Source of the DNA: Pseudomonadota bacterium
GTDB taxonomy: Bacteria; Bdellovibrionota; Bdellovibrionia; Bdellovibrionales; Bdellovibrionaceae
DNA length: 64,000 nt
Direction: 5' to 3'
NCBI GenBank assembly: GCA_041178425.1
Contig: JBEGVH010000006.1
Span: 1-64,000 of the forward strand
Below, piece after piece: positions 42,527 to 49,383 of the stretch. The notes beneath the pieces are model-generated. The model saw nothing but the letters and a program-made list of their open reading frames with translations. It had not been told where the DNA came from and ran no database searches. Each line of letters opens with the position of its first letter. Within the stretch, counting starts at the first letter, position 1. Made by a program: the position numbers and the translations under genes.

Positions 42527-44432
42527 GTCTATTGGGCAGTCACTGGTGAACTCAAAAATTGACGATCTCAAGGACCGTGTGAGGGATTTTCCGGATCAGT
42601 CGGGTGTCTATCTCATGAAAAATAGCACCGATAAAATCATCTACGTTGGTAAAGCGAAAAATCTCAAACAGCGGGTGCGAAGTTATTTGGGTGAAAGCAA
42701 AGACCTAACGCCGAAGACTCGACTTCTCGTCGCCAATATTCACGTGATCGATTATATTCTTACGAAAACCGAAGTAGAGGCGTTCCTTCTCGAAGCTTCG
42801 TTGATCAAAAAACACCGTCCAAAATTTAATATCCGTCTCAAAGATGATAAAAACTACCCTTATATTCGCGTTTCGATGAAAGACGAGTACCCACGCCTTT
42901 ATTTGAGCCGCACGGTCAAACCCGATGGGTCTCTGTATTTTGGCCCTTATACGAGGGGCGGTAGTGTTTTTGAGACCATGCGCTTTCTCAATCAATCCTT
43001 TCAATTGCGTGATTGCACCGACCACAATCTTAAAACGAGAGAACGCCCGTGTATTAACTTTCAACTGGCACGCTGTTCGGCCCCTTGTGTGAAATTGGTG
43101 AATACCACAAATTACGGTGAGGATATCGCGAAAGCTCTTCAGTTTTTGCGGGGTCAAAGTCAGGAATTGATCGACGAGCTCAAGCAAAGAATGTTGCATC
43201 TCTCGGATGAAGAAAAATACGAACAGGCCGCTCGCTGGCGCGATACCTTACGTTCATTAACAGCGATTCTTGAAAAACAATCGGTGGTTGATCCCAACGC
43301 AAAAAAAGATGTCGATATCGTTTGTTTTGTGGGAGATCAGCGTGGAACGATGATTCAGTTTTTGCACGTTCGTCAGGGGCGTGTGCTCGGTACTCGCTCG
43401 CAATTTTTATCGGGCCTTGATCCACAAGATCCCAATGAGGATCCGCGCGAGTGGTTTGTGTCGGTGATCAATCAATATTTTTGGGAGAACATTGTGCCTG
43501 AGGAGGTCGTTCTCTCCTTTGATATCGGCGTAGAGATGATGCGCCTCATGCAAAAAGTATTGACGGAACGGCGAGGGAGTGAGGTCTTAATTAAGATCGG
43601 AACCCACGATGAAAAAGAAAAAGAACTCTTAGAATTGACTCTGAACAATGCGCGGGTGGCGCTCGAGAAACAATCAGAAAAAGTGGAATCCAAAAAGAAG
43701 GGTCTCGAAGAGATTAAAGAGAAATTCAACCTTCCACAGATTCCTTTTCGAATTGAGTGCTATGATATTTCCAATTTTCAAGGGCGTGAGATCGTTGCGA
43801 GTCAGGTGGTTTTTGAAAAAGGGATTCCGGCCAAAGATCAGTATCGACTTTATAAGATCAAGTCTCTGAAAGACGCCAACGATTTTGCCTCCATGAAAGA
43901 AGTCCTCAGTCGGCGTTTTAAGCATCAGGAGTGGGAGGATCCTCAATTGGTGGTTGTTGATGGCGGTAAGGGCCAGTTGAATTTCGCTCTACAAGCTCTC
44001 AAAGAAGTGGGTAAGGACCACCTTCCTTTGGTATCACTCGCGAAAGCCAAAACTGAAAGTGATTTTGAAAAAACGGAAGTGCAAGGATCTGAGGAGCGAT
44101 TTTTTCTGCCGGGGCGACAGAATCCTGTGCTCTTTCGTAAAAATAGTGAAGGCTTAAGAATACTCACTCATCTTCGTGATGAGGCCCATCGTTTTGCGAT
44201 CACGTTTCACCGAAAGCTGCGTGATAAAAAGAGTCTGGGATCTATTCTCGATGAGATCGAAGGCGTGGGTGAGAAACGTAAGAAGCTTCTTTTGGAGCGC
44301 TTCAGCGGCCTTGAGGCCATAATGGCCGCCACGGCCGAAGAAATTGCAGCTCTTCCGAGTTTTAATTTAGATTTAGCCGAAGAGATTAAGGCGTTTCTCA
44401 TGAACGAACTGGGTGATGATTCCCAGCCCTAA
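42519..44432 (+). CDS. uvrC: Excinuclease ABC subunit C
   Basis: [17 protein letters not shown] domain; ECYDIS, DGGKGQ and RDEAHRFA motifs; HhH. Confidence 0.96.
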
Positions 44433-44482
44433 AAAATAGAAAAGTCCGCTCAGCTATCTTCCTGATAACAAAAGCGGACTTT
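44430..44482 (-). terminator. Intrinsic terminator of the riboswitch transcript (possibly bidirectional with uvrC)
   Basis: Stem AAAGTCCGCT (44441-50) / AGCGGACTTT (44473-82) with an inner TATC/GATA hairpin; the U-rich tail TCTATTTTTT is on the minus strand. Confidence 0.7.
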
Positions 44483-44504
44483 AAGGGGAATAAAACCGTT
44501 CCAT
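44481..44504 (-). CDS. Micro-ORF MERFYSP* downstream of the riboswitch
   Basis: AAGGAAGGAG SD, 6-nt spacer, then ATG GAA CGG TTT TAT TCC CCT TAA. Confidence 0.4.
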   Translation of the reverse strand: MERFYSP

Positions 44505-44553
44505 GGGGATCTCCTTCCTTCTCTAAATAAACCTACCTTAGGCTTTTTATCGA

Positions 44554-44651
44554 CCTTTGGCACACTGGCTGGCATTTCTCATCCGGAGAATTAGCCCCTT
44601 TAGTTTTGCGTCCCATCGTTTCCAATGGTTTGCCCTGAGACAAAGGAAGGA
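44554..44651 (-). ncRNA. c-di-GMP-I (GEMM) riboswitch aptamer
   Basis: CAGGGCAAACCAUUG-GAAA-CGAUGGGACGCAAAACU...GGCUAA-UUCUC/GAGAA-AUGCCAGCCAGU; P1 CCUUUG/CAAAGG; GNRA loop and tetraloop receptor present. Confidence 0.92.
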
Positions 44652-45104
44652 TATGACATATATTTAATTTTTCTATATCATTCCTAGACTAGAAAAAAAC
44701 CTCGATAGAGCCTCCTTAATTATTTAGTTGAAAAAACGTACCGCAACCAAATTTTAAAAACCTAGTTGGGCTTCGCTACTTTGGTGCACGGGATTCGCAA
44801 GCTCTGTGCTTCCTGGCTTTGCTCATGTCCCACCCTCCTTTTGAGCGTCGTTTGGAACCAACGCGCTAACAAAATCAGGTTACTAAACAATGTTAGTTTT
44901 TACAAATTTTTGAGGGGACTGCGTATCAGGTTGACGACTGTTAAGAATATCAACGGCTTAACCGATGAAAATCGTTTTATTAGGAGACAAATCTCAAAAG
45001 TGTTCAAAATAAAAATCAAAAAAAAGTGGATCGAAAAAACTAGAGAATAACTTTGAGCGCTCTAGAATCCCTCTCTGGAGCGTTTTCTAAGTCGATAGTA
45101 AAAA

Positions 45105-46160
45105 TTATTTGGCGTCGAGGTTTGATTTTATAGAGGCTTTATTGGCGAAAGACGCAACCGCATCAGAGCCATAAAAAAGAAGTTCTAAGTCCTCCCACTC
45201 AACACCAATATAAACCTGTTGCTCTTCAATTAATCGCTTCAGCTCATTCATCTTAATGCTGGCTTCCATCACATAAGGATCGGCATAGGCTGTTGCTTTT
45301 GCGAGGGAGGGAGTAGTGAAGAGGCTTTCTTGCCAATTGGGGCTCGACAGAAAAAAAGTGAGATAGTTTTTGTGAAGGTTGAGTCGTTCATGAGGAGTTT
45401 TGGTGGAAGTGTTTAATTCTATCTTGGAGAGGCTTTGATTCCAATCTTTATACTTCGAATTGGAATTCAATTCGACAGTTAGTTGCGCACGGAGAGAATC
45501 AAATTCTGTTTGTGCAAAATGAGGATCGTTCAACTTTTGGATGAGGAGAAGGAATAGAGCTTGAGCTTTGCCGAGTCCTCGATAAAGGGTGACTTTATCG
45601 TCCTTAGAAAATTGGTTCTTTAAAAACAAGAATAGCTCCCTATGAGCGTTTTTGCGTGAGTAATTGTATGATTGAGTTTCGCTATCAAAAGCGAAATAGG
45701 GTTGTGCAGGTAAAACCGACTGAATCGGATCTAATTCTTTGTGTCCGAATTCAAAAAATCGCTGATTGCGATAGTAGCCCTCTAAAAAAAGGGATCCATT
45801 GATGAGGACCCAACGATTGTCGAAGCGACGGCCGGTTTCGAACGCCGTTACAATCTCCTTGTTAGAACGCTCAAACATTCTTCTGCCCATCGTTGGATGC
45901 GTAGTAATGAAGGGTGTTCGTTTGAGGAAGTTCTCGTCAAACCAATCAAGTTCGCTGTTAATCCATAGGTTCCGCTCTGAAGGGGGTAGGTTAAGAACGA
46001 CGTCGTTGAGATTATTGAGACGAACTTGAAACGCTTTTTGGTTGAGTGTTGTTGCGCATTTGTGGATGCTACCCAATGATTTGGCTGTAGCCGCCGCTAG
46101 TGAAGGGCCCATGTTTCCAACTAAAAAAGAAAAAGCCAAAAAAAGTTTTAGAATTGTCAC
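45105..46160 (-). CDS. Secreted hypothetical protein with ADP-ribosyltransferase-like motifs
   Basis: Signal peptide; VTLYRGL, SLFTTPSLAKATAYA and EWEDLELLF motifs. Confidence 0.55.
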   Translation of the reverse strand: MTILKLFLAFSFLVGNMGPSLAAATAKSLGSIHKCATTLNQKAFQVRLNNLNDVVLNLPPSERNLWINSELDWFDENFLKRTPFITTHPTMGRRMFERSNKEIVTAFETGRRFDNRWVLINGSLFLEGYYRNQRFFEFGHKELDPIQSVLPAQPYFAFDSETQSYNYSRKNAHRELFLFLKNQFSKDDKVTLYRGLGKAQALFLLLIQKLNDPHFAQTEFDSLRAQLTVELNSNSKYKDWNQSLSKIELNTSTKTPHERLNLHKNYLTFFLSSPNWQESLFTTPSLAKATAYADPYVMEASIKMNELKRLIEEQQVYIGVEWEDLELLFYGSDAVASFANKASIKSNLDAK

Positions 46161-46356: not shown

Positions 46357-47658
46357 ATGGTGGCTATGGTGTTTGTTGGCTTACACAGTTTTAAACAAGG
46401 CTTCGCCATGGCCGTCTTGAGTCTTTTTGTTTTATCTTGGTCTCTAGATGGGTTGGCAACAGGGGCCCTCTCCTCTCAGCGTTTGCCCATTCTTCAGGGG
46501 GCCACCAGCTCTACGACGGTTCAATTGGCGGTTTTACGTTCCAGCGATCGGAACCTCCGCTATCAGCTGGCCGACTCACTGGGGGCTCTCTTTGAGCCGA
46601 TCTCCATAAAGGTAAAAACGCGAGTAACGTCGGCATGGGTGGTAGATCAACTGGCTTATCAAGGTCTTCCCGAGGGGCGGGAGTTGGTTTTTAGAGTTCT
46701 CAGTGCAGAGGGAAAGCCTTTGGATGCCCGCTTGTTACGAACGTTAAACCCTCGCGCGCCTCACCTTAAAATAGCTCTAGCGTCTTGTATGGCCGACGAT
46801 CCACAGTTTTATTCGGCTCCCATTTGGCGGTCCTTAGAGGGTCAAAAACCAGATCTGATATTTTTCTTAGGTGACAATGTGTACGCCTCTATCAAAACAC
46901 CGGTCAATCCTGCCGAGTTGTGGGAGCGCTACCGCCAGACACGAATGGCCCTTGATTTTTTTTACTTCGAGAGATTGATTCCTGTTTTTGCCACTTGGGA
47001 TGATCATGACTTTGGGCTCAATAATGGTGATCGACGTTACCCCTTTGTGCGAGAGGCACAAGACGTCTTTAGGGATTTTTTTCCACAAGAAGAAATCTTC
47101 GGAATTCTCCAAAAAGGGCCCGGCATCAGTCAGTCCCTCCTTCTCTATGGAAAACAATTTGTATTTATGGACGACCGTAGTTTTCGAGATGCCCCGATGG
47201 GGGAGTCCATGTGGGGAAGTGAGCAAGAAGCGTGGCTCTCGACGATTCTCAAAACTGCGAAGCAGCCGGTGTGGGTGATTAATGGTTCGCAAATGTTCGG
47301 ACAGTATGGTCCGAGTGAGTCGTTAGAGCGAGATTTTCCCTCTCATTTTTCTCGTTTTGTAGGCGATTTGAGTCGTTCTAGCCAATCCTTCACATTGGTG
47401 TCTGGTGACATTCATTCCTCTGAAGTTTTGCAGTTGCCGGTGAAGTTAGTAGGGCGACGAGCCCTCGAGATCACCTCTAGTTCCATGCATGCTAAACATT
47501 CTAGTCTTAGAGAACTTCCGCCGAGTCCGCGACGGTTGGCGGGGTATCATGGTGATAACTTTGTGATCGTGCATTTTGAACCAGATCCCACCCAAAATAG
47601 CTTTTATTTAGAAGCCTTTGGTCGCCGGAACCAAAAAGTCTTTGAGTATTTGTATTGA
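46357..47658 (+). CDS. PhoD-family alkaline phosphatase/phosphodiesterase
   Basis: ASC, FLGDNVY, WDDHD, DDRSFR and SGDIH motifs. Start codon uncertain. Confidence 0.85.
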   Translation: MVAMVFVGLHSFKQGFAMAVLSLFVLSWSLDGLATGALSSQRLPILQGATSSTTVQLAVLRSSDRNLRYQLADSLGALFEPISIKVKTRVTSAWVVDQLAYQGLPEGRELVFRVLSAEGKPLDARLLRTLNPRAPHLKIALASCMADDPQFYSAPIWRSLEGQKPDLIFFLGDNVYASIKTPVNPAELWERYRQTRMALDFFYFERLIPVFATWDDHDFGLNNGDRRYPFVREAQDVFRDFFPQEEIFGILQKGPGISQSLLLYGKQFVFMDDRSFRDAPMGESMWGSEQEAWLSTILKTAKQPVWVINGSQMFGQYGPSESLERDFPSHFSRFVGDLSRSSQSFTLVSGDIHSSEVLQLPVKLVGRRALEITSSSMHAKHSSLRELPPSPRRLAGYHGDNFVIVHFEPDPTQNSFYLEAFGRRNQKVFEYLY

Positions 47659-47778: not shown

Positions 47779-49383
47779 TTAAAGTGCTCCGCCACCGGGG
47801 GGTCGAGGAGTTGTTGTCTCCTCAGGGGTTGTGGTTTCACCGCCTGGACCCGTGGGTCCAGTAGGACCAGTTGGTCCGGTTGGGCCTGTCGGACCGGTGG
47901 GTCCAGTAGGACCCGTAGGACCAGTAGTGCCAGGGGTTCCGCCTGGACCTGTTGGGCCCGTTGGGCCAGCAGGACCTGTGGCTCCTGTGTCACCTTTCGC
48001 GCCCTTGGCACCTGTTTTTCCTTGTTTTCCACTGTTGAGGAGTGCTGCGATCGCTAAACCAAGAGCGGCAAGAACGCCACCGCAAACGAGCCCTTCGGTG
48101 ATCCCTTTGGTACAAAACCAGCCACTTTCTTCTTTTTTCTCTGTGGCAGCCGCGGCTGCCACAGGAGCTATTTTATCGCTAGACTTTGTCGCTGCGGCGG
48201 GTGCCTTTGCGGCTTCAGTTAAGTTGCCCATAGGTTTCAACACTTCCACGCACGCGGAAATGTTGTGGTGGTTATCCTCAGAAGCCGTAAATCCAGTGAT
48301 GTCTTTCGCGGAAATTCCTTTGAGTTTAGTGCGATCGTCTTTATATTGTTTGCGATCTTTATCAGCCATACAAGTGTCGATGAGCCAATCCATCTTTCCG
48401 ATGAGGTGATCGCGCACTGATTTATTGATTGTCACTTTGTCTTTGTAGCGTGGATCACTTTCTAGTTTTTTAATATGCTCATTCATTTTCTCTGGGCTAT
48501 TGATAGAGCTGTAGCCAGAGGCGTCGGCACACTGCTTTGAAACGTCTTCCTTTGGATTTTTTGTTACGCAGTATTCCTTTGAACCGTTGTAGCCAAATAA
48601 AAGGGGATTACAAACAAGCTTGCTTCCGCCACAACTATAAATGGCTGTGGGTTGTGTGCAGCCTCTCTCGTAGCCGCAACAGCCTGTTTCTTCATCGTAC
48701 ATTGCAGTCACCCAGCCTGCGATGACGCAGCTTCGGTCTTTCTCGCCAGCGGTTGCACTGGGAAGGAGAAGGTCGAAGAGGCTCGATGTTTTTCGAGCCT
48801 TAGGGAGAAAGTTAGACTGGTTTTTTTCAACCGCCATAATGAATTCGCGGAGGGCCTTAAAGTAAGCCATACCCCACTTCGGATCGGCTTTAGAATAGGC
48901 CTTGATTTGCTCCCATGTTGGCAGGGGATTAGTATCGAGTTCTGATTCGATCACGCCATTTTCGAGAGCTTTTTTGAGTGGAAGATTTGTTTTATTAACA
49001 ACTAAAGTTTCACCGTCAGCTGTTTGTTTTAATAGCCACTCCTGCTTTCCGGCGTCTTTCGTTTGAAATCGAAGTTTCAAAAAAGCACCATCAGCCTTGT
49101 TTTTTTGAACCGTGGCTGAAATAGCAGGAAACATTTCGTTTTTGTGCTGAGCCACCCATGGAGCAAAGCGAGCTGCTGTGTCTGCATCCATTTGGCCTTT
49201 TGCTTTTTCAAACCAGGCTCCGACCGTTTGGGCTTTGCCCATGCCGGCTGCATTCAATCTTTCTTTTGAGTGTTTGATAAAATTCTGGTTATTGGGAGCT
49301 GCCCAAACAGCCGCTTCAACAAACAGACTCGAACTGAGAAAGAGGCAGAGGCCTCGGTGAATGACCTGCATTCTTTTCTTCAT
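47779..49383 (-). CDS. Exported Cys-rich protein with late TM helix and collagen-like C-terminal tail
   Basis: Signal peptide; CVIAGW / CNPLLFG Cys-rich domain; hydrophobic [18 protein letters not shown]; 22 Gly-X-Y triplets. Confidence 0.8.
47833..48030 (-). repeat. Collagen-like (Gly-X-Y)22 coding repeat, mostly GPT
   Basis: 198 bp with 9-bp periodicity and synonymous variation between units. Confidence 0.9.

Follow-up and report, generated by a model that had tools for sequence, protein, structure and literature searches.

The element described here lies on the minus strand of a 64,000-nucleotide (nt) stretch of DNA from a member of the Bdellovibrionaceae (contig JBEGVH010000006.1; hereafter the window), where it faces the convergent gene uvrC. 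In the direction of its transcription it comprises a pyrimidine tract, an aptamer for cyclic di-GMP (c-di-GMP), a purine box, an open reading frame (ORF) of seven codons and an intrinsic terminator. By its sequence, the RNA at this locus is orthologous to merRNA, a c-di-GMP-riboswitch RNA that stands alone in the genomes of Bdellovibrio-like predators; the features just named belong to its 3′ half, and the whole RNA would run from ~44868 to ~44431. Its pyrimidine tract has two conserved partners, one that closes the aptamer and one that covers the start of the ORF, an arrangement that suggests a translational riboswitch.

A merRNA orthologue in the window

The aptamer (44556–44644, minus strand) matches the c-di-GMP-I (GEMM-I) family RF01051 over the full model (positions 1–87 of 87); the score of 67.2 bits (E = 7.7e-12) is well above the gathering score of 35, and a genome-wide search finds it in single copy in the 3.06-Mb genome. 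Its closing helix, P1, pairs CCUUUG (44646–44641) with CAAAGG (44559–44554).

In B. bacteriovorus HD100, merRNA is a 445-nt stand-alone RNA with a c-di-GMP riboswitch, ‘massively expressed’ and in attack phase equal in abundance to all mRNAs together (Karunker et al. 2013, PMC3627812). That report calls the RNA non-coding, finds neither an ORF conserved behind the riboswitch nor conservation of the RNA beyond the Bdellovibrio lineage, and assigns it the role of a passive reservoir for c-di-GMP (PMC3627812). The RNA in the window resembles merRNA, as described there, in belonging to the same lineage and in being a stand-alone RNA of ~440 nt that has a single c-di-GMP-I aptamer, is bounded by a promoter and a terminator of its own and precedes no gene. 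It departs from that 2013 account in having two conserved small ORFs, a covarying helix that masks a start region, and a family-wide and wider distribution. Our literature search found later papers that mention merRNA in passing or use its promoter only, and no paper on its small ORFs or the helix; the supplements of the 2013 report lay outside that search. A sequence-only reading that preceded this analysis had described the 3′ half of the element; it missed the identity as merRNA and the ~220 nt that lie further 5′, with their second small ORF and competing AAGGAGG box.

Relatives carry homologous DNA that extends into the flanks: it is present in 29 of the 36 genomes from this family and in some genomes of sister families. 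A scan of a genome collection with the conserved 3′ box described below gave many chance matches from unrelated phyla, and only those with an aptamer upstream were kept; among the matches listed, there are records titled Bdellovibrio, Pseudobdellovibrio, Bdellovibrionaceae and Bdellovibrionota, one of them (L108) from B. bacteriovorus. The conserved blocks stand in the same order in the window, in L108 and in at least 50 other elements. Because the same DNA is present in these relatives, including the B. bacteriovorus record, we take the locus to be the counterpart of merRNA, with orthology judged against L108. A metagenome scan anchored on the aptamer core gained three further merRNA-type elements, and the pyrimidine tract was present in 4 of its 124 matches; 121 of the 124 had no 3′ box and were set aside as ordinary c-di-GMP-I riboswitches of other taxa. 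Seven metagenome contigs (L165, L174, L188, L193, L196, L213 and L227) carry tandem c-di-GMP-I aptamers, with two to three copies within a few hundred bases; these belong to other taxa and are unrelated to merRNA.

A conserved helix that masks the start region and competes with P1

At the 5′ edge of the aptamer, the pyrimidine tract UCCUUCCUU (44643–44651, minus strand; columns 15–25 of our alignment) is the exact complement, over 9 bp, of AAGGAAGGA (44520–44512), as the sequence-only reading had claimed when it named the tract an anti-Shine–Dalgarno (anti-SD) sequence. A repeat search lengthens the pair to 12 nt at 92% (44654–44643 with 44520–44509). The partner belongs to the Shine–Dalgarno (SD) region AAGGAAGGAG (44511–44520, minus strand), which contains a GGAAGG box (alignment columns 237–242); in most other genera the same box reads AUG-GAA-GG and is itself the start codon with codons 2 and 3. 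Between P1 and the SD region, folding predicts a small hairpin, AAGCCUA-AGG-UAGGUUU (44529–44545, minus strand), and in other genera the hairpin at this place holds, by eye, an SD sequence, GAGGUG, in its 3′ arm.

Among 2,000 mononucleotide shuffles of 44660–44428, 17 had as good a match, a perfect 9-nt complementarity of the first 25 nt to sequence 100 nt or more further on; by itself, the match is uncommon without settling the question. It is the conservation and covariation seen among relatives that argue that the helix is not a product of chance. Across our alignment of 53 elements (L023 and L047 were left out as too short), the tract (columns 15–21) pairs with the GGAAGG box (columns 243–237) in 92.6% of 367 cells, compared with 47–71% when the partner is slid. 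Eight cells have changed on both sides of the helix, the covariation score is 0.206 as against 0.144 ± 0.011, and none of 500 shuffles reaches either value. Counts for a single pair, 16:242, illustrate the pattern: C:G 39, U:G 7, A:U 5 and G·U 1. Every element with UACUUCC or UGCUUCC has GGAAGU, a covarying change that turns the third residue of the ORF from Gly into Val, which argues that the pairing has been kept rather than the residue. A second compensatory event, CCCUCC with GGAGG, is seen by eye in L014, an element from a sister family. Judged by these alignments, the masking helix is conserved and under selection.

The 3′ part of the tract is also the 5′ strand of P1. This overlap, noted by the sequence-only reading, is real and amounts to 4 nt in the window (44646–44643); across elements the helix and P1 have 2–4 tract nucleotides in common. 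P1 is paired in 95.3% of cases in the 53 sequences, compared with 27–71% when its partner is slid, and its changes are restricted to G·U. The same two C residues of the tract take part in both structures, and the alignment shows little or no variation in either of the GG dinucleotides that pair with them. Two conserved partners for one strand are the signature of a switch.

A further box, AAGGAGG (44711–44717, minus strand), is invariant, has no start codon behind it and is a possible competitor for the tract. RNAalifold pairs its AGGAGG with CUUCCU; as the main partner of the tract we reject it, given that none of the six pairs covaries and that this pairing is 5–6 kcal/mol worse in the window. 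It lies 60–75 nt upstream of the aptamer, and in most genera a small CCUAG...CUAGG hairpin follows it.

Constrained folding with and without P1, which the sequence-only reading had suggested as a check, bears out two exclusive states in the 441-nt RNA of the window: forcing either P1 or the anti-SD helix sends the other to probability 0. The ensemble energy is −134.0 kcal/mol with P1 forced (SD unpaired 0.25) and −134.3 kcal/mol with the anti-SD helix forced (SD unpaired 0.00), compared with −135.5 kcal/mol for the unconstrained RNA (SD unpaired 0.14), in which the anti-SD helix has a probability of 0.51 and P1 of 0.08. Forcing the AAGGAGG box onto the tract gives −129.2 kcal/mol (SD unpaired 0.26). 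Because the two states are mutually exclusive and lie 0.3 kcal/mol apart, ligand binding could easily tip the balance between them. Thus, the first stage that the sequence-only reading had proposed, ligand-gated masking of the SD, is supported by a covarying helix that competes with P1 in exclusive states; its direction, with ligand as the ON signal, would follow from the stabilization of P1 considered below.

A micro-ORF of conserved frame and a constrained 3′ box

The micro-ORF, sORF2 (44481–44504, minus strand), encodes MERFYSP; its ATG (44504–44502) begins 6 nt behind the purine box and its TAA occupies 44483–44481. It thus has seven sense codons and a stop, and it is the minimal form of a family that reads M-E-G-x(n)-D-W/R-F-H-S-P-stop; the B. 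bacteriovorus member is MEGTNTYKDWFHSP followed by a stop. In the genus of the window the spacer is gone, and the GGAAGG box, codons 2–3 elsewhere, acts as an SD that is well spaced for the seven-codon ORF.

We assessed the frame in a set of 49 distinct elements that have both the aptamer and the 3′ box, drawn partly from the matches listed. A frame-blind start rule (the ATG of ATGGAAG, or the first ATG at most 22 nt after GGAAG) applied to 46 of the 49. By this rule 38 elements have their ATG in frame with ...F-H-S-P-stop, 3 and 5 fall in the other two frames, and the in-frame ORFs have ten different lengths between 7 and 18 codons. At the level of genera, with each genus represented by a single element from the aptamer-homology set, the frame is kept in 14 of 18 (binomial P = 1.45e-4). 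Of 25 elements obtained independently of the box, 22 have a stop codon directly behind ..UCC CCU (UAG 14, UAA 7 and UGA 1). An SD-like motif precedes 40 of the 46 candidate AUGs, whereas among the remaining AUGs of these RNAs it precedes 32 of 227, a comparison that is partly circular where GGAAGGA is itself the SD. The frame counts leave out L003, L004, L013, L014, L028 and L031, whose 3′ box differs from our regular expression, and L017 and L030, which lie on incomplete contigs. By eye, L003 and L004 encode MERFNSP-stop, L031 encodes ...IYSPPAC-stop, with its end inside the stem, L014 lacks a canonical start, and L013 and L028 keep an SD and a short ORF that ends at or in the terminator. From these regularities we infer that the micro-ORF is translated.

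One alternative is that merRNA is a purely non-coding c-di-GMP reservoir, in which the tract:GGAAGG helix would serve to clamp the aptamer domain shut and the ORF would be a by-product of conserved RNA motifs. The AUG-GAA-GG box and the 3′ box are indeed constrained as RNA, the former by its compensatory G-to-U change and the latter by first-position variation, 8 of the 46 elements are out of frame, and the 2013 authors saw no conserved ORF (PMC3627812). Such a reservoir would leave without a structural explanation the multiples of three kept by a spacer of variable length. Nor would it be expected to show three different stop codons at one position, SD-like motifs enriched before the AUG, or, in the genus of the window, conversion of the box into a well-spaced SD. 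We consider this alternative unlikely.

The 3′ end of the ORF coincides with the 3′ box, GGUUUUAUUCCCCUUAA (44481–44497, minus strand; family consensus GGUUUCAUUCCCCUUAR), which is conserved at the nucleotide level. Its variation is confined to first codon positions (W/R and H/Y/N) and is never synonymous, and we conclude from this pattern that the box is constrained as RNA. We sought an intramolecular partner for it with RNAduplex, which gave −13.3 kcal/mol against the rest of each RNA, the same as for shuffled boxes (−13.3 kcal/mol), with no consistent site; this result gives no support to a pairing with P3 of the aptamer that had been suspected by eye.

These properties of the box bear on two further alternatives. 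In the first, the peptide (...D-W-F-H-S-P) would itself be functional, for instance as a c-di-GMP-controlled micropeptide or a nascent-chain arrest peptide. Its C terminus is conserved, W, F, H and P residues recur, and it ends Pro-stop, a slow-termination context. Changes at first codon positions with none that are synonymous are the opposite of purifying selection on a protein, however, and the middle of the peptide is unconserved in a product of 7–18 residues; we regard a functional peptide as highly improbable. In the second, merRNA would act in trans, either as a sponge for a CsrA-type protein that recognizes GGA or as a small RNA (sRNA) that pairs through the C-rich 3′ box or the tract, with the micro-ORF or the riboswitch gating the site. 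The genome encodes csrA (PF02599, 90 bits), a trans partner is a natural explanation for an invariant 3′ box that has no intramolecular partner better than shuffled ones, and the massive abundance reported for HD100 merRNA fits titration (PMC3627812). A CsrA sponge of the CsrB/RsmZ type should be strongly over-represented in GGA, and we reject it: the RNAs (n = 39) have 11.4 GGA each, and their dinucleotide-shuffled versions 9.7 (mean z 0.77). Action in trans by itself would also leave the conserved reading frame without explanation, and we think it quite improbable.

The stop codon at the terminator and the convergent neighbours

The intrinsic terminator (44431–44482, minus strand) was recognized by folding and a repeat search. 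Its 5′ arm, AAAGUCCGCUU (44482–44472), pairs with GAGCGGACUUU (44451–44441), encloses an inner stem-loop and is followed by a U-run to 44431; a simple consensus scan for terminators found nothing, as the loop of more than 8 nt exceeds the limit of that scan. The terminator abuts the stop codon of uvrC (44430–44432, plus strand), a gene named by its Pfam match. As the sequence-only reading had observed, the stop codon of the micro-ORF overlaps the 5′ arm of the terminator; its second and third bases fall within the extended stem. This geometry is general: in 43 of 44 elements the distance between the start of the stem and the first base of the stop codon is 0–5 nt, and the single outlier is an artefact of our U-run rule. 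The eight out-of-frame ORFs stop 7–49 nt further on, inside the hairpin. From known ribosome footprints, a ribosome that stops at the foot of the stem would have to cover the 5′ arm of the hairpin.

The sequence-only reading went further and proposed that a ribosome on the micro-ORF could allow read-through antisense to uvrC, linking c-di-GMP to excision repair. We tallied the longest ORF downstream of the element in the 39 elements with enough flank. This neighbour is convergent in 30 of the 39 and co-oriented in nine. The convergent genes are an SLT/LysM lytic transglycosylase in 20 elements, uvrC in three, all from the genus of the window, and other genes in seven. The nine co-oriented ORFs (one GAF histidine kinase, one MFS transporter and seven without a Pfam match) are mutually unrelated, and there is no conserved co-oriented gene downstream. 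On the strength of this tally, merRNA has no conserved gene to switch on, and the adjacency of uvrC is an accident of one genus. The link from c-di-GMP to uvrC and excision repair in the window was a false lead, for which we find no evidence and which is now removed.

A queE-linked riboswitch class was also considered and rejected, as eight of the co-oriented downstream ORFs were scanned without a queE or radical-SAM match and the ninth is a 79-amino-acid (aa) ORF without matches. The loci with an SLT + LysM neighbour come from many genera (L007, L009, L010, L012, L016, L022, L026, L032, L034, L048, L059, L061, L062, L069, L074, L088, L089, L092, L093 and L100). This neighbourhood could be plain synteny or could reflect a shared terminator or antisense relationship.

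The more general form of the proposal is a riboswitch-gated leader-peptide attenuator, in which the ribosome would block the terminator during transcription and read-through antisense RNA would regulate the convergent gene, uvrC in the window. The conserved placement of the stop codon suits such a device, as does the fact that ORFs in the other frames also end in the hairpin, and the recurrence of the same SLT/LysM gene makes a conserved antisense target conceivable, although this target would not be uvrC. An attenuator is defined by a dependent co-oriented downstream gene, and we find none that is conserved; the lack of a controlled downstream gene is instead a feature of merRNA. Conserved synteny, moreover, can be purely historical. 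Kinetic considerations also speak against an attenuator, as a ribosome on an ORF of 21–54 nt would, at known rates, have to initiate and catch the polymerase within ~90 nt. We saw no pairing that could act as an alternative antiterminator. In HD100, merRNA is reported to be a discrete species of 445 nt (PMC3627812). An attenuator of this kind is very improbable, and regulated read-through into any target gene is unlikely.

Transcript ends and the 5′ half of the RNA

A promoter-like box (44877–44905, minus strand) consists of TTGTAA (44905–44900), a 17-nt spacer and TAACCT (44882–44877), and would place the transcription start site at ~44868. The same arrangement, TTGAAA-N17/18-TAnCCT followed by GAUUUUG at equal distance, is seen by eye in B. 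bacteriovorus and other genera. From this box to the U-run, the predicted RNA measures ~436–441 nt, compared with the 445 nt reported for HD100.

RNA contigs from four independent metatranscriptome studies all fall inside 44462–44849. The contigs show presence and carry no expression levels; 17 of 20 sequencing runs among those listed are recorded as RNA. An adapter junction lies ~11 nt past 44847 in RNA contigs. In the contigs of four RNA runs, none covers 44150–44461 or extends past 44849; contigs cannot show absence, and we do not use this as evidence. The sequence-only reading had made the anti-SD depend on transcription beginning upstream of 44648, and the predicted start, the reach of the contigs to 44849 and the length of the HD100 RNA all place the tract within the transcript. 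Contigs of three metatranscriptome studies end at 44496–44503, the start codon of the micro-ORF, ~70 nt before the end of the terminator; these ends may reflect library 3′-end bias or a processed 3′ end.

The second small ORF, sORF1 (44776–44842, minus strand), lies ~200 nt upstream of the aptamer. It has a strong SD, AAAAGGAGG (44842–44834), an ATG at 44826 and a TAG at 44778–44776, and encodes MSKARKHRACESRAPK followed by a stop. An SD-preceded ORF of 8–25 codons occupies this place in 25 of the 39 elements that have at least 250 nt of upstream flank, and counterparts such as MKNRIHDHHDEPPK-stop recurrently end in ...P-x-P-K/E-stop. In several genera the sORF1 stop codon lies inside a small hairpin.

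Directly upstream of the merRNA promoter is a 351-aa ORF (45105–46160, minus strand) without a Pfam match at E ≤ 0.001. Further ORFs in the region include one of 534 aa (47779–49383, minus strand) with a collagen triple-helix repeat match barely above threshold (PF01391), and one of 433 aa (46357–47658, plus strand) with a partial match to PhoD-like phosphatases.

Discussion

We propose that merRNA is a translational riboswitch that acts on its micro-ORF, with control of merRNA itself as the likely output, and we put the probability of this reading at roughly 60%. In this model, the pyrimidine tract 5′ of the aptamer would pair either with the 3′ strand of P1, closing the aptamer, or with the purine box ~130 nt downstream, which would serve as the SD in the genus of the window and as the start codon with codons 2 and 3 in most genera, in each case for an ORF of 7–18 codons. 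Because the two pairings share 2–4 tract nucleotides, c-di-GMP, by stabilizing P1, should destabilize the helix over the start region and so permit initiation; c-di-GMP as the ON signal is the most economical reading of this arrangement. A ribosome terminating at or inside the terminator would then cover and melt the 5′ arm of the hairpin. As the RNA normally ends at this terminator and nearly always faces a convergent gene, the RNA that is controlled is likely to be merRNA itself. There are several possible consequences of translation, including melting of the merRNA 3′ hairpin, decay, protection of an A/U-rich spacer, and access to the 3′ box.

A number of our results weigh against this model. 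First, the covarying cells of the masking helix come mostly from one clade (the MEV... group) and represent few independent events, and P1 shows no compensatory changes in the 53-sequence alignment. Second, in most genera the helix and P1 overlap by just 2 nt, so the two might form together, stacked at a junction; if so, the switch could work in the opposite direction or in none. Third, the predicted folding is equivocal. In the window, forcing P1 frees the SD to just 0.25. Among 35 species that we folded, pairing of the tract with the start region has a mean probability of 0.16 and is high mainly in the genus of the window, L047, L058 and L135; the tract is predicted to pair upstream more often (0.47), and forcing P1 leaves the accessibility of the start region almost the same (0.38 to 0.40). 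Fourth, 27 of the 49 elements (rows L032 and above) were fetched by an exact 3′ box, which biases the set toward the motif and its stop codon. Fifth, conservation of the 3′ box at the RNA level means that the peptide is probably not the functional product and that part of the apparent conservation of the ORF is conservation of an RNA motif. Finally, the eight out-of-frame elements count against translation of the micro-ORF, and our literature search for ribosome profiling in Bdellovibrio found none among the matches listed.

A more specific version of the proposed riboswitch, which we offer tentatively and regard as doubtful, is that merRNA is a ligand-gated translated RNA in which c-di-GMP would open the start site and transit of the ribosome through the 3′ box and into the hairpin would set the fate of the RNA, by decay or exposure of the 3′ end and hence release of the bound c-di-GMP pool, or would permit read-through antisense to the lytic transglycosylase. 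In that case, the c-di-GMP reservoir of the cell would be self-regulating at the switch from attack to growth.

Several known systems share parts of this design. In leader-peptide attenuators such as trp, pyrBI and tna, the ribosome on a short ORF overlaps a hairpin that decides the fate of the transcript, and TnaC, like the micro-ORF peptide, ends Pro-stop. The Mg2+ riboswitch of Salmonella mgtA is combined with an ORF, mgtL. The merRNA micro-ORF, if translated, would likewise place its ribosome over a terminator hairpin. In contrast to these attenuators, which have a co-oriented downstream gene, no such gene is conserved behind merRNA, and we found no antiterminator alternative. Dual-function sRNAs, including SgrS/SgrT and RNAIII/hld, are abundant sRNAs with a translated small ORF, and we know of none that is riboswitch-gated. 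merRNA resembles them as an abundant RNA with a small ORF that is probably translated, and its activity in trans is hypothetical.

Close parallels in mechanism are riboswitches that sequester an SD, including c-di-GMP-I riboswitches such as Vc2 upstream of tfoY (10.1101/617340), in which P1 competes with a helix that masks the ribosome-binding region. A helix that masks the start region and excludes the closed aptamer is predicted in the window, where the two states are nearly isoenergetic; folding is ambiguous in other genera. merRNA differs from these riboswitches in that the 5′ strand of P1, where the 3′ strand is usual, provides its anti-SD, in that its masking helix encloses the whole aptamer (~130 nt), and in that the frame it would regulate is one of 7–18 codons on an orphan RNA rather than a protein-coding gene. 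In V. cholerae, ligand binding protects Vc2-terminated sRNAs from degradation, with RNA abundance as the output (Pursley and Waters, 10.1101/617340). merRNA is similar to these sRNAs in placing a c-di-GMP-I riboswitch within a small RNA that is itself the likely output, and a corresponding effect on merRNA stability is plausible. In the Vc2-terminated sRNAs the aptamer forms the 3′ end and there is no ORF, whereas in merRNA the aptamer is internal and is followed by the micro-ORF and terminator.

These results would add an unusual design to the known riboswitches, in which the anti-SD is the 5′ strand of P1 and a micro-ORF takes the place of the regulated ‘gene’, with what becomes of the RNA as the likely output. 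merRNA has been without a mechanism since 2013. The small frames, a masked start in competition with P1 and a stop codon in the terminator make the ‘sponge’ testable with a few point mutants.

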